A stretch of DNA of 64,000 nucleotides, taken from assembly GCA_964606085.1 (NCBI GenBank), contig CAZSFD010000007.1, positions 27,234-91,233 on the forward strand. Reading direction: 5' to 3'. Below are positions 3,392-59,858 of this stretch, one piece after another. Below the pieces are notes generated by a model that worked only from the letters and a program-made list of their open reading frames with translations, was not told the DNA's origin and made no database searches. The stretch comes from an uncultured Anaerolineaceae bacterium. GTDB taxonomy: Bacteria > Chloroflexota > Anaerolineae > Anaerolineales > UBA4823. How positions within the stretch are numbered: position 1 is the stretch's first letter; each line of letters starts with the position of its first letter. The translations under genes were made by a program, and so were the position numbers.

Positions 3392-5668
3392 CTACCGATA
3401 GCCATAGCGCGCCATCGCCACCGATTGGATGGTCATTTCGGGGCTGATCTCCATTTCGAGCCAGGCCAGTTCTTGGCGCAGGGCTTCGAGCTGGGTCGAA
3501 TCGACCAGGAAAATATCGGGGTAGAGTACGCCCTTGAAGAAGGGCCTGAACCTGGCACTGCCTGAGAGGGCCTCGAAAACGAGGGTGTCGTAGCTGTGCA
3601 ACACGGTGATCTGTGACAATTCCACCTTGCGCCCACCCTCGGCCCACGAACGCAAGGCCAGCGCCAGCAAACGCGGCATTTCGGCCATCAGGCGTTCGTT
3701 CAGCAGGCGCAAAAGCTGGTCGGGCTTGCGTTTGGCGGCGATGGCGGCGCGCACGCTGTTGGCGGTCAGCCGCCAGTGGCCTTCGGGGGTGGGTTCGACC
3801 CAGGGGGTGAGTTGTGCTTCGATCAACAGGTCGCGGGTTTTGCTTTTCAATTGCAGCAGGCCATCTTCGCTGGCGGTCAGGCACTTGGGCAGCGCCATGC
3901 CATAGTTGAGGCGCGTGATGCCCTGCGGGGGGTGGCTGTATTGGGTCGGGTCGGTCAACAGCAGAAAACGCTCGCCAATCAAGGTTCCTTTGAGACCTTT
4001 TTTGCCGAAGGGCCCGTCGCGCATGGCGCGCTGGCGGGCTTTTTCGTTATCAAATTCGAGCAGGCTGGCGCGGCGGTAACAGGTCATGCGTTCGCGTAAG
4101 CCCGCCCACTCGGTCAGTTCAACGACCACGTTTTGCGGCAGGTCGGTGGCTGAACCGGCGCGCAGGCCGTCGAGCAGCCCCGCCAGCGTGGAGCCGCTTT
4201 CGAGACCGCGATAGACGGATTGGCGGGTAAGCAGGTAGTGGGCGGTATGCTGGTGGGCTTGCTGGCGTTCGGCGTGGCGTTCGATGAAGGCCAATTGCGC
4301 CGGGGTGGCCTGTTCGAGGTAGACGATCAGGTCAAAATTGGGCTGCACCACCCAGGTCGTTTGGCCTTCGGCAGATTGCAGGGAAACCGCCTCTGCCTCC
4401 GCTTTGGCCGGAGCAGAAGCAGCCAGGGTGGGATGGAATACGTCACAGCCCAGTTCGGTCAGGCGCATGGCGGCAACTCGCTCACCATCGCTGGCAAGTT
4501 CGACCACGCCGAGGAAATAAAGCCAGCTGCGCAGCGCCGCTTCGAGCCAGGCACGTTCAAGTTTGAGCCAGGCCGCCCGGCGCTGGGCGCGCCATTTGTT
4601 CTCCTGCTTGTCGTCATTCTCATAGCGCATATAGTAGGGGCGGGAGGAATTGCCATCGAGCGAAAAATATTCGCCGGCGCGGTGGTAGAGCGCCTGTTCA
4701 AAATCATCTACCGAAAAGAATGGATGGCCCTCGAGCGGCAAGGCGCTTAACCCCAGGGTCAGCATCAAACGCCCGGCCATGCGGTGTGTGCCATATTGAT
4801 CGAACCAGCGGCTGGGTTCGGGGATTTCCAACCAGTTGGCTGAACGCACCAGGCCATAGAGCAAAATGCGCACCTGCTCGTGGACGGGCCGGTCGGCAAA
4901 GGTCATCAAGGGTTCGGCCAGCACCAGGCGTTCTTCGCTGGCGCTCATCAACCCCGAACGGGCCAGGGCATGCACCCAGGCTTCGGTGGGGTCGGGCATG
5001 GCAAAGCCATCGAGCGTGATGCCCGTTTCGGGCCAGCGCAGGGTTTTGCGCAGTTTTTTGATCTCGGTGGCGCGGATCAGGCCGGTTTTGGTCAGCAGCA
5101 GGCCGCCGATCTGGTCAACCGCCTGCAACACGCCTAACAGGTCAAGGGCCACAACAGCCGGGCGGCGGAAACTGGTGTGTTCGGGCGTGCCGATGGTGGG
5201 CAGGGTCAACGGGGCAACATTGACATAGCCAGAGACCTGGAGCAGCCGCAGGTCGCTCCAGATGATGTTGGAGGAGTATTCGGTGAAATAGGCGGGGTTG
5301 TATTGGTAATTGCTCAACACCAGGCCGCGTTTGAACAGGCGGCTGACCAGTTCTTTGGCATCGAGCGGCATTTTGCGGGCGTTGGTGGGCAGGTCGCCGC
5401 CGGCGGCAATCAGCCCTAAACCGAGTATCTCGTAATTCGTGGTGCCGCCCATGTAACGCAAGATAGCCAGGGCGTTGCGTTCCCAGGTAGGCAGCGCCTC
5501 GACGGCGGCCTTGACCTTGTAGGGGTCTTTCAGGCCATCCACAACGATTTTGGCCGCCTCGCCTTTCGATATATTCGACCTGCCGCCCCACAGCCGCGCC
5601 ATTGCCTTCACTTCGGGGGCGTTGATCATATCGAGGTAGGTATCGAAATGCAGGCTCGTATCGTCCAT
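3392..5668 (-). CDS. XPB-associated large protein E with C-terminal XPB-NTD / TFIIH p52(Tfb2)-like module
   Basis: 758 aa, last gene of the XPB operon; its ATG directly abuts the stop of the 65-aa ORF. Motifs: WVVQPNFDLIVY, LTRQSVYRGLESG, LPQNVVVELTEW. Size and position recall the about 750-aa neighbour of mycobacterial XPB (from memory). Confidence 0.8.
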   Translation of the reverse strand: MDDTSLHFDTYLDMINAPEVKAMARLWGGRSNISKGEAAKIVVDGLKDPYKVKAAVEALPTWERNALAILRYMGGTTNYEILGLGLIAAGGDLPTNARKMPLDAKELVSRLFKRGLVLSNYQYNPAYFTEYSSNIIWSDLRLLQVSGYVNVAPLTLPTIGTPEHTSFRRPAVVALDLLGVLQAVDQIGGLLLTKTGLIRATEIKKLRKTLRWPETGITLDGFAMPDPTEAWVHALARSGLMSASEERLVLAEPLMTFADRPVHEQVRILLYGLVRSANWLEIPEPSRWFDQYGTHRMAGRLMLTLGLSALPLEGHPFFSVDDFEQALYHRAGEYFSLDGNSSRPYYMRYENDDKQENKWRAQRRAAWLKLERAWLEAALRSWLYFLGVVELASDGERVAAMRLTELGCDVFHPTLAASAPAKAEAEAVSLQSAEGQTTWVVQPNFDLIVYLEQATPAQLAFIERHAERQQAHQHTAHYLLTRQSVYRGLESGSTLAGLLDGLRAGSATDLPQNVVVELTEWAGLRERMTCYRRASLLEFDNEKARQRAMRDGPFGKKGLKGTLIGERFLLLTDPTQYSHPPQGITRLNYGMALPKCLTASEDGLLQLKSKTRDLLIEAQLTPWVEPTPEGHWRLTANSVRAAIAAKRKPDQLLRLLNERLMAEMPRLLALALRSWAEGGRKVELSQITVLHSYDTLVFEALSGSARFRPFFKGVLYPDIFLVDSTQLEALRQELAWLEMEISPEMTIQSVAMARYGYR

Positions 5669-5866
5669 CTACTCGATCACTTTCGGGGTGTGGCCCTGCT
5701 TGAGCAGGCGGTTGAGCAGCGTGTCGAACTGGCCGGGGGCCACGATGGCCACGCAGTCAGACAGGCGCGTGAGCAGATAGACCGCCGTGCGCGGGTCTGC
5801 GTACAGGTCGTCGAGAATGTGGGCGTCGGCTACTTCGATCAGGGGGAGGTTGTCGTGGAGGATCAT
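5669..5866 (-). CDS. 65-aa protein D, stand-alone copy of the terminal beta-alpha-beta unit of the XPB-NTD/p52 module (p8/Tfb5-sized)
   Basis: ATGA overlap with the XPB stop and TAG-ATG abutment with gene E indicate translational coupling. Its sequence LPLIEVADAHILDDL...VAIVAPGQFDTLLNRLLKQGHTP parallels XPB residues NLILVGEDAILITEI...LLVRPGMRGHIKQALLQVGYP. Confidence 0.6.
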   Translation of the reverse strand: MILHDNLPLIEVADAHILDDLYADPRTAVYLLTRLSDCVAIVAPGQFDTLLNRLLKQGHTPKVIE

Positions 5867-7557
5867 GCCTGCAAAACTTCATCTTCATACAAAATTTCGT
5901 ATTTGTAGCCCTGCTCGGTGAGGAAGCGTTGGCGGTTGGCGTTGAAGGTCTGGTCTACGGTGTCGCGGGTGACGATGGTGTAGAAGTGCGCCATCGCGCC
6001 GTCGCTTTTGGGGCGCAGGATGCGTCCGAGGCGCTGGGCTTCTTCCTGGCGGCTGCCGAACGTGCCAGAGATTTCGATGGCCACATTGGCATCGGGCAGG
6101 TCAATGCTGAAATTAGCCACCTTCGAGACGACCAGGCGCTTCACTTCACCGGTACGGAATTTGGCATAGAGCTTTTCGCGCTCGCGCACGGGCGTTTCGC
6201 CAGTGATCAGCGGGGCCTCAAGGGCGGCAGCAACCTGGTTGAGCTGGTCGAGGTAAGTGCCGATGATCAGCAGGTTTTCGTGGGCGTGACGGTTGATGAT
6301 GGCCTTCAGCATCGGCAGCTTGCGCGGGTTGTGGGCGGCAATGGGGTATTTTTCGCGCTGGTCGGCCATGGCGTAGATCATGCGCCAATCATCATCGAGC
6401 GGGATGCGTACCTCGTGGCAGGCGGCGGTGGCGATCCAGCCCTGTTTTTCCATATCTTTCCAGGGCACATCGTATTTTTTGGGGCCGATCAGCGAGAAGA
6501 CATCGCCTTCGAGGTTGTCTTCGCGCACCAGCGTGGCCGTCAGCCCCAGGCGGCGGCGGGCCTGCAACTCGGCGGTGATGCGGAATACCGGGGCGGGAAG
6601 CAGATGCACTTCGTCGTAAATCACCAGCCCCCAGTTGCGGGCGTTGAACAACTCGAAGTGGGGGTATTCGGCGTCGGCGCCTTTGGTACCACGCTTGCGA
6701 TAGGTGAGAATTTGATAGGTGCTGACCGTGACCGGACGGATGTCTTTTTGCAGGCCAGAGTATTCGCCCACCTGGTCTTCGGTGAGGGTGGTTTTATCAA
6801 TCAACTCGCTCATCCACTGGCGCACGGCCACGGTGTTGGGCGTGAGGATCAGCGTGGAGGCCTGTAACTGGTGCATGGCGGCCATGCCGACGATGGTCTT
6901 GCCGGCCCCGCAGGGCAGCACAATCGTGCCACTGCCGCCGCGCGACGAGCCTTCGGCATGGAAGACGGCCGCGGCCTCCTGCTGGTATTTGCGCAGGTTG
7001 AACGGACGCCCGCCCAGCGTAAGCGGGCGCAGTTCGATAGGCAGCGCCTCGCCCACCACATATCCGGCCAGGTCTTCGACCGGGTAGCCGACTTGCAAGA
7101 GCGCCTGCTTGATGTGGCCGCGCATCCCTGGCCTGACCAGCAAGCGCGTGGCATCGAGCTGCTGCCCGATAAAGGGCTGCACCTTTTTATGGCGCACAAT
7201 TTCGGTGATGAGGATGGCGTCTTCGCCGACCAAAATCAGGTTTTCGCCTTCTTTGATCAGCTTCACCCGGCCATAGCGCCCCATGTAATCTTCGATGTCG
7301 CGCACCACATTGCCGGGCAGGTCATACTTGGCATAGTCGCGCAGCCCGCTGACGATCTGCGCCGCCGAAAAGCCTGACGAGGCCGCATTCCACAGCGAGA
7401 GCGGCGTAACGCGGTAGGTGTGGATGTATTCGGGCGATTTTTCCAACTCGGCAAAGCGCGCCAGCACGTCGCGAGCGGGAGTGTAGTTTTCGTTATTGAC
7501 TTCGAGCAGGATGGTTTTGTCACCCTGGACGATGATGGGGTTGGATGCGTTGAACAT
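5863..7557 (-). CDS. xpb: XPB/Ssl2 (ERCC3/Rad25)-type SF2 DNA helicase
   Basis: Walker A CGAGKT, DEVH box (YDEVHLLPA) and the XPB-specific RED motif (TATLVRED) are present. The N-terminal domain has IIVQGDKTILLEV and LPGNVVRDIEDY. Length 564 aa. Confidence 0.9.
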   Translation of the reverse strand: MFNASNPIIVQGDKTILLEVNNENYTPARDVLARFAELEKSPEYIHTYRVTPLSLWNAASSGFSAAQIVSGLRDYAKYDLPGNVVRDIEDYMGRYGRVKLIKEGENLILVGEDAILITEIVRHKKVQPFIGQQLDATRLLVRPGMRGHIKQALLQVGYPVEDLAGYVVGEALPIELRPLTLGGRPFNLRKYQQEAAAVFHAEGSSRGGSGTIVLPCGAGKTIVGMAAMHQLQASTLILTPNTVAVRQWMSELIDKTTLTEDQVGEYSGLQKDIRPVTVSTYQILTYRKRGTKGADAEYPHFELFNARNWGLVIYDEVHLLPAPVFRITAELQARRRLGLTATLVREDNLEGDVFSLIGPKKYDVPWKDMEKQGWIATAACHEVRIPLDDDWRMIYAMADQREKYPIAAHNPRKLPMLKAIINRHAHENLLIIGTYLDQLNQVAAALEAPLITGETPVREREKLYAKFRTGEVKRLVVSKVANFSIDLPDANVAIEISGTFGSRQEEAQRLGRILRPKSDGAMAHFYTIVTRDTVDQTFNANRQRFLTEQGYKYEILYEDEVLQA

Positions 7558-7592
7558 GGGGGAGGGGGGTAAGTCGTTATTGGTTGTTAGTT

Positions 7593-7657
7593 ATTCGATA
7601 TTCGATATTCGATATTCGGTGTTCGAGTAACGAATATCGAATTATCGAATATCGAAT
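7593..7657. repeat. AT-rich heptamer-repeat palindrome inside the XPB operon
   Basis: attcgat x3 + attcg (7593-7618) is the near-perfect reverse complement of cgaatatcgaattatcgaatatcgaat (7631-7657), with one extra t. The loop is 12 nt. Confidence 0.9.
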
Positions 7658-7665
7658 TCGGCTGA

Positions 7666-9408
7666 TTAAGCATTCATATCCATAATTTCAGGAGTATAGG
7701 CGTCGGCGAATTGGGCGATGGCCTGCTCGAAACGCGGCCAGTGAACTTGCGAGAGGGTGATGGTGCGCAGGGTTGTATCGGGTTGGAAGGGGCAGCGCAG
7801 TTCGGCCAGCGCCAGTCGGAAGGCGTCGAACGCTTCGGCGCTGGGGAAGGTGATGGTGATGGAGGTCTGGCGTTTGAGCGGCAGCACTTGTGGGCCAACG
7901 GGCTGCGCCGGGGCCGGGGGGATTTCTTTGGGGAAGAGGCTTTGGGCGGCTTCGGGAAGCGGCAGGAAGCTGGCTGACAGGTGAGCGGCAATCAGCGGAA
8001 CGCATCCGGCGCTTTCGAGGCCGGCAGCCAGTTGCTCGGCGTGGCGCACCAGGGCCAGCCCCGGGGCGATGCGCTCGGCGATGTGGTCAGACACGCCCGG
8101 CAGGGTGAGATCGCCCTCGAACAGGCCGATATTCTCGTACAGGGTGAACTGGTCGGCGTGGCCGCTCCATTCTTCCAGTTCGGCCAGCACGTTGGGCGGC
8201 AGGTCGCGCCCGCTCATCTGGCGCAGCAGGGCAATCACGGCTAAATCGGGCTGGCGCACCAGTTCGGCGGCCACCAAGTCCTTTTTCAGGCGTAAGATCG
8301 TCACCGAGGCCCCCACCACGCCGCCAGGCTGCGAGATGGTTTCGGTCAGCGGGCGAAGCTGCTGCATCACTTTGGTGGGGTAAATTTCGGCCTCGACGAT
8401 GACATCGAAGTTGGGCTGCACGGTGACGTTGGGCTGCATCGTCTCGCCGCGCATCAGACGCAGGAAGCGCTCTTGCACACGGAAGGCTTTGAGAACGCCG
8501 CGCTCAGGGCGCGCGCCCTCGTAACGGGCGGGGGCATAGGCTACATCCACAAAACGCAGGACAAGCGGGATGTATTCGAGAAAACGCTCGACGTAGCGGC
8601 CTTCCACACGCTCGAAGGCATCGGGGTCGCTTTCGGCGATCGGTTCGCGGTTGAGGTCCCAATCGGTGCGGCCTTCATAGAAGTTATCGTAGCGTTTGGA
8701 CTTATTGCCCCAGCGGTCGGCTTTGATTTTTTCGGGAATGAGGAAAAAAGGGTGCTGCTGCTTCAAATGGGCAATCAGGGCTGCGGTGCTGTACCACACC
8801 CCTGGCTGACACTGCTGCAAGACTTCGAGCAAAAAGCGGCGTACGCGCACAAAGTCAATCGAGGGCATCACACCCACGGCTGAACCGCGCACCGCAAAAT
8901 GATCCAGGCGGCCCAAAATGGCGGGGGTATAAAATTCGTTGCGCGGCGAGGGGTAAGCGCCGCCCGTATTCACTTCGTTGATCAGGATTTCGAGCAGCCG
9001 CTTTTCTTGCTCGGCGGGGGTCAGTTCGAGAAAGGCGTGCAAAACCTTCTCACTGACAGCAATGTAATTTTCAGTGAACGATGGTTCGCTGCTGGAGTAG
9101 CCGCGGTAAGTGCCTTTGACATCGTACCCGGCCAGCCCGGCCAGCCAGGCCAGGTGGTCAATGAAGTCAATCCAGCTTAAGCGCTGGCTGGCGTAAACGG
9201 CGTTGTCGAAGCGCGGTGAGCCGAGGGCTTTGTCGAGGCGGTTGAGGTCGGCCTGGGGAATCTGGTTGGTGCGCGTCATGCGTTTGACGCTGCGCGTGCG
9301 CATGTAATCGAGGTAGATCAGCAAGTCTTCAAGCAGGTCGCGGTCGTTGCTGGCAATGCTCAGGCCGTCAACGGGCATCTCTTCGAGGGCGAGGGGCGGC
9401 TTGCTCAT
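7666..9408 (-). CDS. XPB-associated large protein B with XPB-NTD / p52-like module
   Basis: 580 aa, with ATGA overlap to upstream gene A. Motifs VTVQPNFDVIVE and LPPNVLAELEEW are followed by a beta-alpha-beta tail. No nuclease or NTPase motif was seen. Confidence 0.8.
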   Translation of the reverse strand: MSKPPLALEEMPVDGLSIASNDRDLLEDLLIYLDYMRTRSVKRMTRTNQIPQADLNRLDKALGSPRFDNAVYASQRLSWIDFIDHLAWLAGLAGYDVKGTYRGYSSSEPSFTENYIAVSEKVLHAFLELTPAEQEKRLLEILINEVNTGGAYPSPRNEFYTPAILGRLDHFAVRGSAVGVMPSIDFVRVRRFLLEVLQQCQPGVWYSTAALIAHLKQQHPFFLIPEKIKADRWGNKSKRYDNFYEGRTDWDLNREPIAESDPDAFERVEGRYVERFLEYIPLVLRFVDVAYAPARYEGARPERGVLKAFRVQERFLRLMRGETMQPNVTVQPNFDVIVEAEIYPTKVMQQLRPLTETISQPGGVVGASVTILRLKKDLVAAELVRQPDLAVIALLRQMSGRDLPPNVLAELEEWSGHADQFTLYENIGLFEGDLTLPGVSDHIAERIAPGLALVRHAEQLAAGLESAGCVPLIAAHLSASFLPLPEAAQSLFPKEIPPAPAQPVGPQVLPLKRQTSITITFPSAEAFDAFRLALAELRCPFQPDTTLRTITLSQVHWPRFEQAIAQFADAYTPEIMDMNA

Positions 9409-10790
9409 GGGCGCACCGCCTTGACCACGAAGCCGGCCTTGCGTACGCTCTTCTCCACTTCGTTGGCAAGCCCGGCGGGGAAGGCGACAAACTGATCAGA
9501 CAGGACGATCAGGTTTCCTTTCAGGTCACGTTCGAGCTGCACGCGCAGGCTCAGGTCGCGCACGCGAGCCAGGCGCAGGTTCAGGTGAACGATATTTTGG
9601 CCCCATTTTTCTTCGACCTGTACCATATTCTGCGCAAAGGCCGGGATGTGCTGACACAACCAGGCGGCCAGGGGTGACTGGCGTTCAGCGGGGGTCAGGC
9701 GGCCTAATTTGACCAGGCCAGGCACGGCGATCAGGTTATTGTGTTGCACCTGCAAGGCTGCCAGGCGGTTGATCTGCTCCAGGTCGGCCAGGGGGATGCG
9801 GCGCAAATCCACCAGCGCCGACTGGCCATCAGGGCCAGGCGTAAGGAACTGATCGGGTGTCAGAGCTTCGGCGGGTTTTGCGAATGGCAGCCGGTAATAG
9901 GTGGCGGCGCCCTCTTGCAGTCTTTCGAGCAAGCCCCAATGCCTGCCTGCTTCGCACATTTGGGCCACTGAAGGCATTTGCGCACCAAAGCACCAGGTGC
10001 GCAGCAACGGTTCGAGTTGGATAACCGTTACCCATTCATCGGGCTGCAAGGTTTTTAAGATGTGCGGTATCACTTCAGTTGGGTGTTTGACGGTGGGATC
10101 ATTGGGCAGGATCACCCGTGAAGTGACCTGCCAGGCGCTGCGCTGCCATTCGACCAGCCCTGCGCCAGTAATGGGGCGTTCTCCCAGGTACAGCGTGCCG
10201 GCGACGAGGGTGAGCGCAAAGGGTTCTTTGGGCAATTGGCTCGAAACGATTGGCCCTCCTACCACTTCGAGCAATTTCTGCCGCACAATATTGGCGTTCA
10301 CTTCGCCCTGGGCCTGGCTTTTGTGCGGGTGACGGATGAGCGGCGGCAGGTAAGCGACAAACTCGGGCGGGAAGCGGTAACGCCAGCGTTCCATTTGGAC
10401 GCTTTCACCGCGCTGCTTGACCTCCGCCATCACCAGCACGCCTTTGCGCACCAGGTTTTGCTTGACACAGTCGAAGGTGGGGCGATATTGCTGGGTAAAT
10501 GTGCCGGAATAATACTTTTGATCACTGCGTGCGCTGCCATAGAGCCGCTCGAAGAAACTGATGTCCACTTCTTGCGCTTGAAAGGCGAGCAGGTAGAGTG
10601 TGGCGATTTCTTCATCGGAAAGGGTCTGCATCACCCCATCCAGCCCGATGCTGGTGAGAAAGAAACTCTCGAAGGCGGCGCGTGAGGCGGTCTCTTTTTG
10701 TCCGAAGCCACGCGCCTTGCGAATAGCCTTGATGTCAGCCTCGGCCAACGTTTCGTGGCACATCTGGTTGAGCAAGCGAGAAAGTTCCAT
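9405..10790 (-). CDS. XPB-associated protein A, divergent paralogue with p52-like C-terminal module
   Basis: 461 aa, first gene of the operon, preceded by a near-consensus promoter and an AAGGAA SD. The C-terminal IPAFAQNMVQVEEKWG plus the tail NLIVLSDQFVAFPAGLANEVEKSVRKAGF fit the same module more loosely. Confidence 0.75.
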   Translation of the reverse strand: MELSRLLNQMCHETLAEADIKAIRKARGFGQKETASRAAFESFFLTSIGLDGVMQTLSDEEIATLYLLAFQAQEVDISFFERLYGSARSDQKYYSGTFTQQYRPTFDCVKQNLVRKGVLVMAEVKQRGESVQMERWRYRFPPEFVAYLPPLIRHPHKSQAQGEVNANIVRQKLLEVVGGPIVSSQLPKEPFALTLVAGTLYLGERPITGAGLVEWQRSAWQVTSRVILPNDPTVKHPTEVIPHILKTLQPDEWVTVIQLEPLLRTWCFGAQMPSVAQMCEAGRHWGLLERLQEGAATYYRLPFAKPAEALTPDQFLTPGPDGQSALVDLRRIPLADLEQINRLAALQVQHNNLIAVPGLVKLGRLTPAERQSPLAAWLCQHIPAFAQNMVQVEEKWGQNIVHLNLRLARVRDLSLRVQLERDLKGNLIVLSDQFVAFPAGLANEVEKSVRKAGFVVKAVRP

Positions 10791-10814: not shown

Positions 10815-10843
10815 ATTGTAATAGATGGATGAGACGATGTCAA
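10815..10843 (-). promoter_or_regulatory. Sigma70-type promoter of the XPB operon (TTGACA-17 nt-TACAAT)
   Basis: On the minus strand, TTGACA is at 10843-10838, followed by a 17-nt spacer and TACAAT at 10820-15. This is about 25 nt upstream of ATG 10790 and immediately after the infA terminator. Confidence 0.55.
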
Positions 10844-10912: not shown

Positions 10913-11164
10913 TTAAAACTCAAGACTGGGGGACTCGTTGCGTTTTTTCTGGCGGTAAACAATGCGTCCGCGTGTCAGATCGTATGGCGACATTTCTACA
11001 CGCACCTTGTCACCCAATAAAATGCGAATGTAATACTTGCGCATTTTACCCGACAGATAAGCCAACACCTCGTGCCCGCTATCGAGGCGGACACGGAATT
11101 GAGTTCCTGGCAGCGCTTCGACGACGGTGCCTTCCACTTGAATTTTATCTTCTTCCTTAGCCAC
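10913..11164 (-). CDS. infA: Translation initiation factor IF-1
   Basis: [70 protein letters not shown] is the canonical IF-1 S1-fold sequence. GTG start chosen. Confidence 0.9.
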
Positions 11165-11197
11165 ACACACCTCCAAATCTTTCTAAATTGAACAGGA

Positions 11198-11395: not shown

Positions 11396-11648
11396 GCGTA
11401 TCACCTCCTTTCCTGCTGCCCGTAGGCATAAAAAAAGCCCGACCAAATTCGCAGACCCGGTCGAGCCACTTTTTATAAACTTTTCCTGGGGGAAATTTCT
11501 AAACGATGTTTACGCTCCAATCCTAGAGAGTTAATCGTTCCATGAGCCTGCGAATATGCAAAAATTATACCCCAAGCGCCAGATGGTGTCAAAAGCGAAA
11601 TCATTGGGCAGGTAGCTATCAACTTTGCAACCTGCCTGCCCCTTTGCC

Positions 11649-17972: not shown

Positions 17973-18011
17973 GCGAAGATTATACCCGCGCGAAAGGGCG
18001 AAAAATGCCGA

Positions 18012-18020
18012 TGGTATAAT
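18012..18020 (+). promoter_or_regulatory. Extended -10 element (TGgTATAAT) upstream of the methyltransferase gene
   Basis: TGGTATAAT at 18012-18020, about 70 nt before ATG 18091. Confidence 0.35.
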
Positions 18021-18090
18021 GCCCGAACAAAAAAGCTGTATTTGGTTAAAGTACGGTTTCAATCCAGGTCTTTGTTAAATTTGAAAGACA

Positions 18091-19188
18091 ATGAAAAAAA
18101 TCAAAGATGAATCAGTAGTTGTATATTCCAGTGAACGCCCTGCAAATATGCCTTATTGGAATGAGATCGTTTGTGGTGACAGCGCCGAATTGCTTAAGCA
18201 AATTCCAGACGATAGCATTGATCTCATTATTACATCGCCACCCTATTTCCAACAACGCGAATATGATGGCGGCGGCATTGGCAATGAAAAAAAAACAGAT
18301 GACTATATCACTGCTTTGTTGGGAATTTTTCGTCAATGCGTACGAACAATAAAGTCTACAAGAAGCATTGTTTTTAATGTCGGGGATAAGTATGAAGATA
18401 GCAGTTTGTTACTCATGCCTTATCGTTTTGCCATTGCAGCGACAGAACAATGTGGTGTCAGTTTGGTCAACCATGTTACATGGGTCAAAACAAACCCAAC
18501 CCCTCGCCAATTCAGACGGCGTTTGGTTAGCAGCACTGAACCATTTTTCCATTTCGTTAAGTCACAAAACTACCAGTATGACATTGACGAGTTTCTCAGA
18601 CCCCTTGATGAAGTGAAACCCAATGGAAATGGGAATGGCAATGGCGCTGGTGAAAACATCGGTAAAAAATACTTTTCGTTGATTGAGCAATCTAACCTGA
18701 CCATGCCACAAAAAGAAATGGCACGCGGCGCATTGGAAAACGTCATTGAAGAAGTTCGCATAGGCGAAATTCAAGGATTCCGAATGAAAATCCGCGGTAT
18801 TCACTCGGAACCATTTGGCGGGCAAGATGGCGGCAGAAAAATCCAGCTTGATAAAAATGGCTTTACCATCATACGCATTCATGGCAATCCGTTGAAAAAA
18901 GATACCATTATCACACCGGTCGAATCACTCAAAAACTGCCCGCACCCTGCGATATACCCGGTAAAAATCGTGGAAGAATTTATTAAATTATTAACTCGGC
19001 GAGGCGATATTGTGCTTGATCCATTTGTCGGGTCAGGCTCAACGGCGGTGGCTGCATTTCAGACCGAAAGAATGTATATCGGATTTGACATCAGCGAGGA
19101 ATACTGCACATACGCCCGAAACCGCTTGCGAAATACAAAACACCAATTGTCATTGTGGGAGAAAAACAATGCCGCAGACACCGATTGA
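18091..19188 (+). CDS. Beta-class N4/N6 DNA methyltransferase (SPPY type, m4C suspected)
   Basis: Motif IV IITSPPY is N-terminal and motif I LDPFVGSGST is C-terminal, which is the beta permutation. Coding sequence is AT-rich compared with the flanks. Confidence 0.9.
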   Translation: MKKIKDESVVVYSSERPANMPYWNEIVCGDSAELLKQIPDDSIDLIITSPPYFQQREYDGGGIGNEKKTDDYITALLGIFRQCVRTIKSTRSIVFNVGDKYEDSSLLLMPYRFAIAATEQCGVSLVNHVTWVKTNPTPRQFRRRLVSSTEPFFHFVKSQNYQYDIDEFLRPLDEVKPNGNGNGNGAGENIGKKYFSLIEQSNLTMPQKEMARGALENVIEEVRIGEIQGFRMKIRGIHSEPFGGQDGGRKIQLDKNGFTIIRIHGNPLKKDTIITPVESLKNCPHPAIYPVKIVEEFIKLLTRRGDIVLDPFVGSGSTAVAAFQTERMYIGFDISEEYCTYARNRLRNTKHQLSLWEKNNAADTD

Positions 19189-20314
19189 AATTTTAGAAAC
19201 CGCTTATGGGCAAGCCCAGAAACAAGCACTAAACGATCTCGTTTTGGCCTTGCCTGACGATTGCGCCCAAAATTTGAAGCTTATTATCGAAAAAGCAGAT
19301 GCACAAAAAGCAGTGTTAGGGGTTGTACTCACCTCGCTGGTACACAAAATTTATGAACCATCACAAGATGTTCGCTATCATCAGGATGGCATGGATCAAG
19401 GATATGCTGGCAGAACCTTTGATACGAAATACATCACACCATTTTTGCAAGAGCGATTTCCACACTTTGCAATGGCTGAAAGTGCCTGGTTAACCAGATC
19501 GCTGAAGCAGCCCCACCCTTACACATTCGATTATCCGGGGAAAATTCGCAATAGACTTTTGAAATCGGCTTTCCTCAGTATATTAGATCAAGTTGAGACA
19601 AATGCTGAACTTGCTCCCCAGTTGCTGATAGCTTTATTGGGCCTGATGCGGCAGAAATCAGCAATAGATGAAAACCTGTTTGAAAAAGTGCAAGTGCCTG
19701 GCAGGTTGACAATCTCTCGAATCATTGACGCGATTGTTCAGCATATTTATTACCGTTATCAAAAAGGGGTCGTTGGAACGGCCCGACTTCCAGTTCTGGC
19801 AATTTACGCAGTTTATCAACTCATTTTGTCAGACACGAATCGCTACCATGGCAAAACCCTTGCCCCGCTCACCGCACACACCAGTTCCGATTCGCGTTCA
19901 CAATCCCTGGGAGACATCGAAATTCTTAACCCCGATGGTTCCTGTTTCGAGGCCATCGAGATCAAACACAACAAGCCGATCACGGTGGGCATGGTTGGGG
20001 TGGCCTACCGCAAAATCAAGCCCACCCAGCTTGACCGCTACTATATCCTGACGACCAACGATCCTAATTTTGATGATTACCCCGCCATCGCACAGAAAAT
20101 TGAAGCCTATAAGCGGGTACATCCGTGCCAGATTGTGGTCAATGGGGTTGTGCCATCGCTGAAATACTATTTGCGCCTATTGAGCAACCCACCCGGCTTC
20201 ATTGAAGCATACACCCAACAACTCCAAATGGAATACCAACGCGCCAGCGGCATCAAAGGGGAACATTTGCAAGCCTGGCAAAATATCTGCCGGGACGCGC
20301 TGACTCTGGCATAG
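19169..20314 (+). CDS. Type II restriction endonuclease candidate (PD-(D/E)XK)
   Basis: Overlaps the methyltransferase stop by 20 nt and shares its AT-rich composition. GDIEILNPDGSCFEAIEIKH gives D...E-x-K. The N-terminal part (HQDGMDQGYAGRTFDTKYITPFL, AESAWLTRSL) recalls BsuBI/PstI-type enzymes from memory only. Confidence 0.6.
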   Translation: MPQTPIEILETAYGQAQKQALNDLVLALPDDCAQNLKLIIEKADAQKAVLGVVLTSLVHKIYEPSQDVRYHQDGMDQGYAGRTFDTKYITPFLQERFPHFAMAESAWLTRSLKQPHPYTFDYPGKIRNRLLKSAFLSILDQVETNAELAPQLLIALLGLMRQKSAIDENLFEKVQVPGRLTISRIIDAIVQHIYYRYQKGVVGTARLPVLAIYAVYQLILSDTNRYHGKTLAPLTAHTSSDSRSQSLGDIEILNPDGSCFEAIEIKHNKPITVGMVGVAYRKIKPTQLDRYYILTTNDPNFDDYPAIAQKIEAYKRVHPCQIVVNGVVPSLKYYLRLLSNPPGFIEAYTQQLQMEYQRASGIKGEHLQAWQNICRDALTLA

Positions 20315-59737: not shown

Positions 59738-59858
59738 GCCCGAACCGCCGAATGGGTCCGGCGCGGCAGAAACCTGCGAACCTCGCCAGGGCCGAGAGGC
59801 AGCAACGATAAGTGGGCCATTCTGGGTGCCGCCGGGTCGCCTGTCCGGCGGTTCGTTG
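59738..59858 (+). ncRNA. ffs: Small (4.5S-type) signal recognition particle RNA candidate
   Basis: GCCAGGGCCGAGAGGCAGCAACGAUAAG (59785-59812) parallels E. coli GUCAGGUCCGGAAGGAAGCAGCC. It has a GNRA loop (GAGA) and a compensatory G-C replacing the U-A pair. The ends cgaaccgccg (59741-50) and cggcggttcg (59846-55) pair perfectly to close a long hairpin. The region is ORF-free. Confidence 0.65.

Follow-up and report, generated by a model that had tools for sequence, protein, structure and literature searches.

A 64,000-nucleotide stretch of DNA from an uncultured Anaerolineaceae bacterium (assembly GCA_964606085.1, contig CAZSFD010000007.1, positions 27,234 to 91,233, here referred to as the window) contains one operon of five minus-strand genes in the order A-B-XPB-D-E, which encodes an XPB helicase/translocase together with four further proteins, here called A, B, D and E (Table 1). 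In our judgement this operon probably specifies a prokaryotic XPB that is regulated by p52-like adaptors (A, B and E) and a p8-like cap (D), as in the XPB-p52-p8 part of transcription factor IIH (TFIIH). It is established below that the domains are homologous, that A and B have a predicted architecture like that of p52, and that the gene sets are conserved. The host is a bacterium of the Anaerolineae type, and the nearest homologues of the operon proteins are found in Anaerolineae/Chloroflexota metagenome bins.

The helicase itself is readily identified. Its score with the XPB/Rad25 DNA repair helicase equivalog NF045503 is 862 bits, where the cutoff is 610 (E=1.6e-259, residues 7–555 of 564), and its alignment with human XPB extends from end to end (E=5e-80). 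Its N-terminus carries a module of about 100 residues that is common to E, B and XPB and corresponds to the Pfam family PF13625 (Helicase_C_3), whose gathering threshold is 34.2 bits. Residues 8–134 of XPB (113.6 bits, 7.7e-33) and 440–551 of E (58.8 bits, 6.8e-16) both score above this threshold. Protein B of the window has no PF13625 match at E≤1, and 15 of its 43 orthologues match the family below threshold, with a best value of 4.2e-4, PF13625 being their commonest and top family. B is nevertheless homologous to the PF13625 members, because profile-profile comparison by hhalign gives 98.6% (E=6e-16) between its module and that of E and 88.8% (E=2.5e-6) between its module and the XPB N-terminal domain (NTD). 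By this sequence comparison the B module is a divergent PF13625 copy that lies outside the curated model.

The hhalign comparisons were made with family alignments of 22 sequences for E, 43 for B, 45 for A and 54 for XPB. The E module also aligns with the XPB NTD (96.9%, E=1e-10). As a control, 40 column-shuffles were scored, and they reached 12–14 ± 2–3 against 43 observed for the pairs B module/XPB NTD and E module/p52, which is about 10 standard deviations above. The same relationships are visible in BLASTP among the window proteins, where B 325–433 and E 436–540 are 28% identical (E=2e-6), E 452–589 and XPB 23–158 are 27% identical (E=7e-7), and B 391–436 and XPB 68–116 are 31% identical (E=0.03).

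An initial annotation, made from the sequence alone, had described the module as an ordered series of elements iterated in E, B, the XPB N-terminus and, more loosely, A. For E, B and XPB the common module is confirmed by all of the comparisons above. The two motifs of E lie exactly where they had been placed (QPNFD at nucleotides 4331–4345 and LPQNVVVELTEW at 4106–4141), as does LPPNVLAELEEW of B (8167–8202), and LPGNVVRDIEDY of XPB was found at 7285–7320, inside the range given. The B motif VTVQPNFDVIVE is present, but occupies 8392–8427 instead of 8395–8418; likewise, IPAFAQNMVQVEEKW of A exists at 9603–9647, a few bases off the proposed start at about 9599. The helical segment between the motifs, described as some 50 amino acids (aa) long, is actually about 70 residues with an alpha-beta-alpha-alpha order. 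The motifs were also expected to be conserved in orthologues, and they are. Among the 22 E orthologues V441, Q442, P443, F445, T481, N513 and W521 are invariant, and so are P332, N333, F334, L403, P404, N406 and W414 among the 43 of B. In the 54 XPB orthologues Q11, D13, E19 and P81 are conserved in 100%, and N83 and T51 in 98%.

The module leads directly to TFIIH. When a hidden Markov model (HMM) of the E family was searched against all PDB sequences, only 13 chains were found, and all of them are p52/Tfb2 clutch domains or XPB/Rad25 NTDs. Human p52 (residues 301–407) came top with E=0.005, and Tfb2 of yeast and Chaetomium was also found. In this alignment LPPTITDQIRLWE and a second stretch of p52, both quoted in the initial annotation, are present verbatim. 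By hhalign the E module matches human p52 301–462 with 88.9% (E=2.4e-6; score 42.7 against 11.8±2.0 for the shuffles), and the merged E, B and XPB module reaches 91.1%. Profile-profile alignment had been proposed as the check on the module being the XPB-NTD/p52 clutch, and with 88.8–98.6% among E, B and the XPB NTD and the E/p52 value just given, that identification stands. [quoted passage not shown] The same kind of PDB search, made for the B, A and D families, returned only noise (YopH, eIF5B and dihydrolipoamide dehydrogenase). A faint precomputed Pfam Tfb2 match is present in 2 of 31 E homologues.

In human TFIIH, residues 306–399 of p52 have the XPB-NTD fold and form a pseudo-symmetric dimer with the XPB NTD, and the Thr at the position of the T119P disease mutation is conserved in XPB's NTD as well as in the clutch of p52 (Greber et al. 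2019, PMC6422496). The equivalent Thr is T481 in E, where it is invariant, and T51 in XPB, where it is conserved in 98% of the orthologues. p52 has a four-domain architecture, and p52 and then p8 stimulate the XPB ATPase sequentially (PMC7708078). A clutch domain homologous to the XPB NTD, as p52 has it, is present in E by direct match, while B is linked to it through E, and A by fold only.

The relationship between E and B is, from the profile comparison, a paralogy that extends far beyond the module, since E 150–538 and B 13–447 are aligned over 355 columns (98.3%, E=1.4e-14). Moreover, the N-termini of E (residues 12–123; 5300–5635, minus strand) and A (residues 12–125; 10421–10757, minus strand) have a common helical domain (hhalign 55%, E=1e-4). 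In sequence terms E looks like a mosaic of an A-like N-terminus (12–123), a B-like middle (150–435), the PF13625 clutch and a C-terminal tail. Structure prediction by AlphaFold2 gave a model of B with pLDDT 83, and the top 18 matches of this model in a Foldseek search of the PDB are all p52/Tfb2 (best E 7e-7), after which come XPB chains aligned over some 165 columns. For the models of A and B the top matches are p52/Tfb2 chains of human, yeast and Chaetomium with probability 1.00, matched at full length in alignments of about 480–590 columns. Together with the model of A described below, this result predicts that A and B share the four-domain plan of p52, namely a helical N-terminus, a winged-helix middle, a clutch and a small C-terminal domain.

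Protein A is a more difficult case. The initial annotation had included it among the carriers of the module motif, and this part could not be upheld. None of the 45 A orthologues matches PF13625, BLASTP of A against E, B and XPB gives E>1, and hhalign of A 310–402 against the merged module yields a probability of 0.5%, which is noise. When A was compared by hhalign over its whole length with E and with B, the N-termini of A and E were the only similar part (26%, rising to 55% with the broader alignment described below), and the module is not matched. N388, a residue of the cited motif, is not conserved in the A family, whose consensus reads PAFxxALxxVNxxWG with only F385, W396 and G397 invariant. 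The predicted structure leads to a different result. The AlphaFold2 model of A (pLDDT 84, pTM 0.72) retrieves p52/Tfb2 from yeast, human and Chaetomium as the first 15 matches in the PDB (best E 2.2e-5; probability 1.00 for the best six and 0.25–1.00 overall; alignments of about 290–530 columns), and the generic winged-helix regulators that come after them score only E~1. The secondary structure of A 316–395 (beta-beta-alpha-beta-beta-alpha-alpha-alpha-alpha) parallels that of the B module at 327–416, with IPAFAQNMVQVEEKW and its B equivalent forming the last helix. With a broader alignment of 109 sequences from an exhaustive A-family profile search, A 314–458 is collinear with XPB 6–162 (hhalign 38%, E=3e-4; score 29.6 against a maximum of 21.0 in 40 shuffles). 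A is therefore p52-like by its predicted fold with a faint sequence echo, and not by the motif first cited. The exhaustive search returned 444 representatives, and the 150 listed are all plain A members without a bridge to p52; as far as such a search can tell, the A family is small. Overall, the proposal that A, B and E are p52-like holds, on firmer grounds than the initial annotation had given for it: for E by profiles, for B by profile and fold, and for A by fold.

A second repeated domain, a beta-alpha-beta-beta-alpha 'tail' of about 55 residues, is found in XPB, B and E, weakly in A, and makes up the whole of D. By hhalign D matches both the XPB tail and the E C-terminus with 96.4% (E=1.4e-9 each) and the B tail with 91.8% (E=4e-7), and the XPB tail and the E C-terminus match each other with 95% (E=2e-8). 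The A tail reaches 60% against the XPB tail (E=9e-5, above all 40 shuffles) and 51% against D, and the last domain of the A model pairs with Tfb5 and the Tfb2 CTD in Foldseek (TM 0.52–0.55). The initial annotation had placed a beta-alpha-beta tail at the end of each module; this is right for XPB and B, weakly so for A, and wrong for E, whose residues 540–600 are not a tail and whose tail lies at the C-terminus. The additional C-terminal domain of B (residues 514–568) occupies a position like that of the p52 CTD and has no sequence similarity to the other tails of the operon proteins. The gene for D was absent from the gene list of the initial annotation. It has 15 orthologues with 46–75% identity in operon loci and occurs also in distant XPB-D-E loci, and on this sequence conservation D is a real, conserved gene. 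As to what D is, a gapless by-eye alignment makes homology with p8/Tfb5 attractive, and we rejected it as unsupported by Pfam and by shuffle-controlled hhalign. The likeness of D to p8, which has the fold of the p52 CTD that is its partner, is instead an attractive functional analogy, which rests on its size, its gene position and its homology to the C-terminal domain of E.

The conservation of the gene set was analyzed in a one-genome-per-species scan, in which 148 loci with a B relative were found and 80 of them examined. In 76 of these 80 loci A lies immediately upstream of B, and XPB is directly downstream of B in 59, with 7 further contigs too short to tell. XPB is followed by D and E in 15 loci, and in 25 the two are missing although the contig has room for them. 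The carriers, at 39–54% identity, include the bacterial Anaerolineae, Caldilineae, Desulfobacterota, Planctomycetota, Beggiatoa-type Gammaproteobacteria and Bipolaricaulota and the archaeal ANME-1/Methanophagales, Methanoperedens, Methanosarcinales and Halobacteriota; in the archaea A-B(-XPB) stands at about 39–43% identity to bacterial B. The finding of B relatives at 39–54% identity in both domains of life indicates inter-domain transfer, and so these sequences point to movement of the A-B-XPB set between bacteria and archaea. The neighbours of the relatives are housekeeping genes, with V-ATPase, CdhD and AspRS in archaeal loci (V-ATPase and CdhD in the ANME flanks). A different arrangement, XPB with a 66–74-aa D homologue and an E-like protein but without A and B, was found around E homologues of 26–34% identity, in one case permuted. 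There are thus two conserved sets, A-B-XPB and XPB-D-E, and the window fuses them. Within it, the stop and start codons overlap (ATGA) at A/B and at XPB/D, and the D stop abuts the ATG of E; from this arrangement the gene sets around XPB are taken to be translationally coupled.

Two further observations concern loci of other genomes. One locus (L084, 1–4060) contains two adjacent PF13625 proteins, an incomplete one upstream (565+ aa, 31 bits) and, downstream of it, P0271 with a faint Tfb2 match. The upstream protein was considered as a possible XPB, and this was ruled out, as it is another PF13625 protein. By sequence, tandem p52-like pairs therefore recur outside the A and B families. In addition, one metagenome-assembled genome (MAG; Day6-6_bin-243) has two A-B-XPB loci (L021 and L031), with D-E in one only; either a paralogous duplication or a mixed bin could account for this.

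Within TFIIH, XPB is recruited and its ATPase stimulated by way of two contacts, a sheet-to-sheet pairing of the p52 clutch with the NTD of XPB and the pairing of p8 with the CTD of p52 (PMC6422496, PMC7708078). Analogously, at least one of the proteins A, B and E would bind the XPB NTD as half of a pseudo-symmetric clutch-clutch dimer, and the equivalent tail of E or XPB would be capped by D, as the CTD of p52 is by p8. Acting jointly, these four proteins might then tune, that is activate or limit, the ATPase/translocase of XPB, while the winged-helix arrays could connect the translocase to DNA or other factors. We infer these pseudo-symmetric pairings from the structure known in eukaryotes (PMC6422496) and from the conserved gene neighbourhood, and the partner of each domain, the consequence for the ATPase and the cellular process would all be read across from TFIIH in the same way. 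A role in DNA repair or in the opening of DNA would be likely; since the host is a bacterium and has no RNA polymerase II, it cannot be the opening of promoters within a pre-initiation complex.

Several points weigh against an XPB governed by p52-like and p8-like partners. First, the curated families do not respond: Pfam Tfb2 (PF03849) has no match in A, B, E or any window protein, and Pfam Tfb5 (PF06331) matches 0 of the 15 D orthologues, while hhalign of D against p8 and Tfb5 gives 18% with a score of 20.7, below the shuffle maximum of 25.4. Second, the Foldseek TM-scores of A and B against p52 are low (0.2–0.3), because multi-domain chains differ in domain arrangement, and A is tied to the module solely through predicted structure and a weak profile match. 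Third, A-B stand without an adjacent XPB despite contig room in 13 of the 80 loci, and a patchy spread over phyla and domains is also expected of a mobile or defence system. Moreover, with four domains of the clutch type and five or six of the tail type, several choices of partner and several stoichiometries are conceivable.

A bolder version of the same idea takes the operon as a complete prokaryotic counterpart of TFIIH XPB-p52-p8. Here E (or A) would be a true p52 homologue, D would be the p8/Tfb5 homologue and cap its C-terminal domain, and A and B would form an extra p52-like heterodimeric scaffold. The recruitment/activation module of TFIIH would then have arisen in prokaryotes and passed between bacteria and archaea, and eukaryotes would have inherited it instead of inventing it. 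We regard this version as possible but on the doubtful side. If true, it would provide a small, disorder-free model system for mutations of the types found in xeroderma pigmentosum (XP), in Cockayne syndrome (CS) and in trichothiodystrophy (TTD).

Other explanations of the operon dispense with TFIIH. A, B and E could be XPB-independent winged-helix DNA-binding paralogues, such as regulators or nucleoid factors, with a domain that goes back to a common ancestor with that of XPB, binds nucleic acid or a ligand and does not dimerise, and the 13 A-B loci without adjacent XPB agree with this; but XPB stands directly after A-B in 59 of 80 loci, in several phyla and in archaea, and XPB-D-E is separately conserved, even permuted, with genes that overlap or abut. 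Foldseek favours p52 over generic winged-helix proteins by 4–6 orders of magnitude in E-value, even though several units of A and B weakly match ArsR/MarR-type regulators (ranks 17–50 with the A model). A helix-turn-helix was once predicted in the XPB NTD (PMC3353954), but in the sole system where its role is known, the domain is the XPB-p52 docking interface. We therefore think this explanation unlikely.

A horizontally mobile conflict system, in which XPB would be the motor of an anti-phage defence or restriction-like translocase and A, B, D and E its sensors or effectors, seems to us distinctly improbable. The scatter of A-B-XPB over Chloroflexota, Desulfobacterota, Planctomycetota, Beggiatoa-type Gammaproteobacteria and ANME/Methanosarcinales/Halobacteriota at 39–44% identity, and the two copies in one MAG, would suit such a system, yet the neighbours are housekeeping genes (infA in the window; V-ATPase, CdhD and AspRS in archaea) and not defence islands. 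Similarly, the XPB helicase core resembles PbeA and Dnd-type restriction helicases, but PADLOC-DB 2.0 matches nothing in A, B, D or E and in XPB the generic helicase core only (PbeA and similar), no nuclease, methylase or toxin domain was found in the operon with Pfam, and XPB has an equivalog-level match to the repair enzyme. Finally, that the motifs are a chance or compositional resemblance of unrelated neighbours can be dismissed almost outright, for it holds in part for A alone (no significant match of 310–402, N388 not conserved) and is ruled out for E, B and XPB by pairwise values of 2e-6 and 7e-7, profiles at 89–99%, about 10 standard deviations over shuffles, motif residues invariant in orthologues and above-threshold PF13625 in XPB and E.

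The operon is flanked by housekeeping genes in the window, and a convergent gene lies downstream of E. Upstream of A, on the same strand, is infA (IF-1; 10913–11176, minus strand), which is closed by a terminator with a 14-bp stem (10879–10848), and the promoter-like site of A comes just after this hairpin. A sigma-70-like promoter (12/12) is situated upstream of infA at 11592–11564 (minus strand), and a terminator-like hairpin at 11467–11436, about 100 nucleotides (nt) past it, may be a leader or attenuator; the infA upstream region has no Rfam match. Elsewhere in the window, a low-GC patch at 18001–20314 (0.44 against about 0.61 elsewhere) contains an N6/N4 DNA methylase (18091–19188, plus strand) and an overlapping 434-aa open reading frame (ORF; 19010–20314, plus strand) without a Pfam family, and by its composition and genes it looks like an acquired restriction-modification island. 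A bacterial small signal recognition particle RNA (RF00169, 64 bits) is located at 59750–59849 (plus strand).

Table 1. Genes, domains and signals of the operon, and related loci in other genomes (positions are those of the window except in the last two lines, where they are those of the named locus).
Feature	Residues	Position	Strand	Length	Remarks
Gene A		9405-10790	-	461 aa	outside all Pfam and NCBIfam families; structure model matches TFIIH p52/Tfb2 over full length
Gene B		7666-9408	-	580 aa	outside all Pfam families; E paralogue; structure model matches p52/Tfb2 over full length
XPB helicase/translocase		5863-7557	-	564 aa	NF045503; human XPB alignment
Gene D		5669-5866	-	65 aa	free-standing tail domain
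Gene E		3392-5668	-	758 aa	homologues named 'helicase-associated domain-containing protein' by NCBI
XPB N-terminal domain	~5-104	7246-7545	-		PF13625; IIVQGDKTILLE ... LPGNVVRDIEDY
B clutch module	~325-420	8149-8436	-		divergent PF13625; VTVQPNFDVIVE ... LPPNVLAELEEW
E clutch module	~436-540	4049-4363	-		PF13625; directly matches human p52 clutch
A clutch-like region	~310-400	9591-9863	-		contains IPAFAQNMVQVEEKW helix (383-395); sequence similarity to module not significant alone
XPB tail	107-162	7072-7239	-		aligns with DRD-like segment of human XPB
B tail	~422-475	7984-8145	-		homologous to D
E tail	~690-745	3434-3601	-		C-terminal; homologous to D and XPB tail
A tail	~403-455	9426-9584	-		C-terminal beta-alpha-beta-alpha; weak relation to XPB tail and D
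B second C-terminal domain	~514-568	7705-7869	-		beta-alpha-beta-beta-alpha, after disordered linker
Promoter-like site of A		10815-10843	-		TTGACA-17-TACAAT, 11/12; 25 nt upstream of A ATG
Archaeal A-B(-XPB) loci					L034, L040, L041, L045, L049-L052, L055, L060, L066, L068, L070-L072, L074
XPB-D-E trio loci		L081 3762-8277; L082 2758-6913; L087 2961-7235; L085 1795-6259			L085 permuted, D-E-XPB

Part of this picture is already known, namely the PF13625 family, the eukaryotic dimer and the Pfam/NCBI labels of E-type proteins. The families A (444 representative clusters) and B (525 matches) as full-length p52-like proteins, a description that derives from predicted structures, appear to be undescribed, as do the D mini-subunit and the conserved operons that link A, B, D and E types to XPB in bacteria and archaea. 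A literature search for PF13625, bacterial p52, TFIIH-like and Rv0862c, with incomplete coverage, found no description of the p52 link, of D or of these partners. The 'TFIIH-like' clusters reported in Asgard and Theionarchaea consist of RAD25-like genes only (PMC9258230), and the main biochemical paper on bacterial XPB stated that p52 homologues are absent from bacteria and studied XPB as a lone enzyme (PMC3353954).

If the operon is read as an XPB with p52-like adaptors and a p8-like cap, the XPB-p52 partnership, which has been thought eukaryote-specific, would have a prokaryotic counterpart. Mutations at the interface of XPB with p52/p8 cause XP/CS and TTD in humans. In many bacteria and some archaea XPB is encoded with up to four clutch/tail-domain proteins, and studies of isolated bacterial XPB in vitro probably overlook its regulators. 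The predicted structures also assign a fold and a likely role to the unannotated families A and B with hundreds of members. The operon would thus be a compact, co-expressible system in which clutch-type dimer control of a superfamily 2 (SF2) translocase can be dissected, and a candidate prokaryotic ancestor for part of the TFIIH core.

Among known systems, three can be compared with the operon. First, in the archaeal XPB-Bax1 pair a prokaryotic XPB is likewise encoded beside, and regulated by, a dedicated partner (PMC13024598). Bax1, however, is an XPG-related nuclease that binds ThM/HD2 of XPBs lacking the eukaryote-type NTD (PMC13024598), whereas the operon partners match no nuclease family and share the NTD fold, and their XPB is of the bacterial/eukaryotic type with the NTD. 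Second, 'helicase-associated' PF13625 proteins occur beside bacterial XPB; E belongs to them, judged by the Pfam threshold and by the name that NCBI gives its homologues, and the order of XPB, a small ORF and an E-like gene recurs, while A and B stand outside this and every other Pfam/NCBIfam family. Third, TFIIH XPB-p52-p8 (human XPB/ERCC3, p52/GTF2H4 and p8/GTF2H5; yeast Ssl2, Tfb2 and Tfb5) differs in having one p52 in place of three p52-like proteins. The operon is without XPD, p62, p44, p34 and CAK, the window proteins lack Pfam Tfb2/Tfb5, D is demonstrably related to the XPB DRD-like segment rather than to p8, and E exceeds p52 in length by 300 residues. The likenesses to TFIIH are nevertheless numerous: an XPB with the same NTD; partners that carry a domain homologous to it, as does the p52 clutch (306–399); a whole p52 architecture predicted for A and B, A having 461 aa against 462 in human p52; a small D (65 aa; p8 71 aa) homologous to the C-terminal domain of the large partner E, which mirrors p8 and the p52 CTD; and the Thr of the T119P site, kept in both E and XPB.

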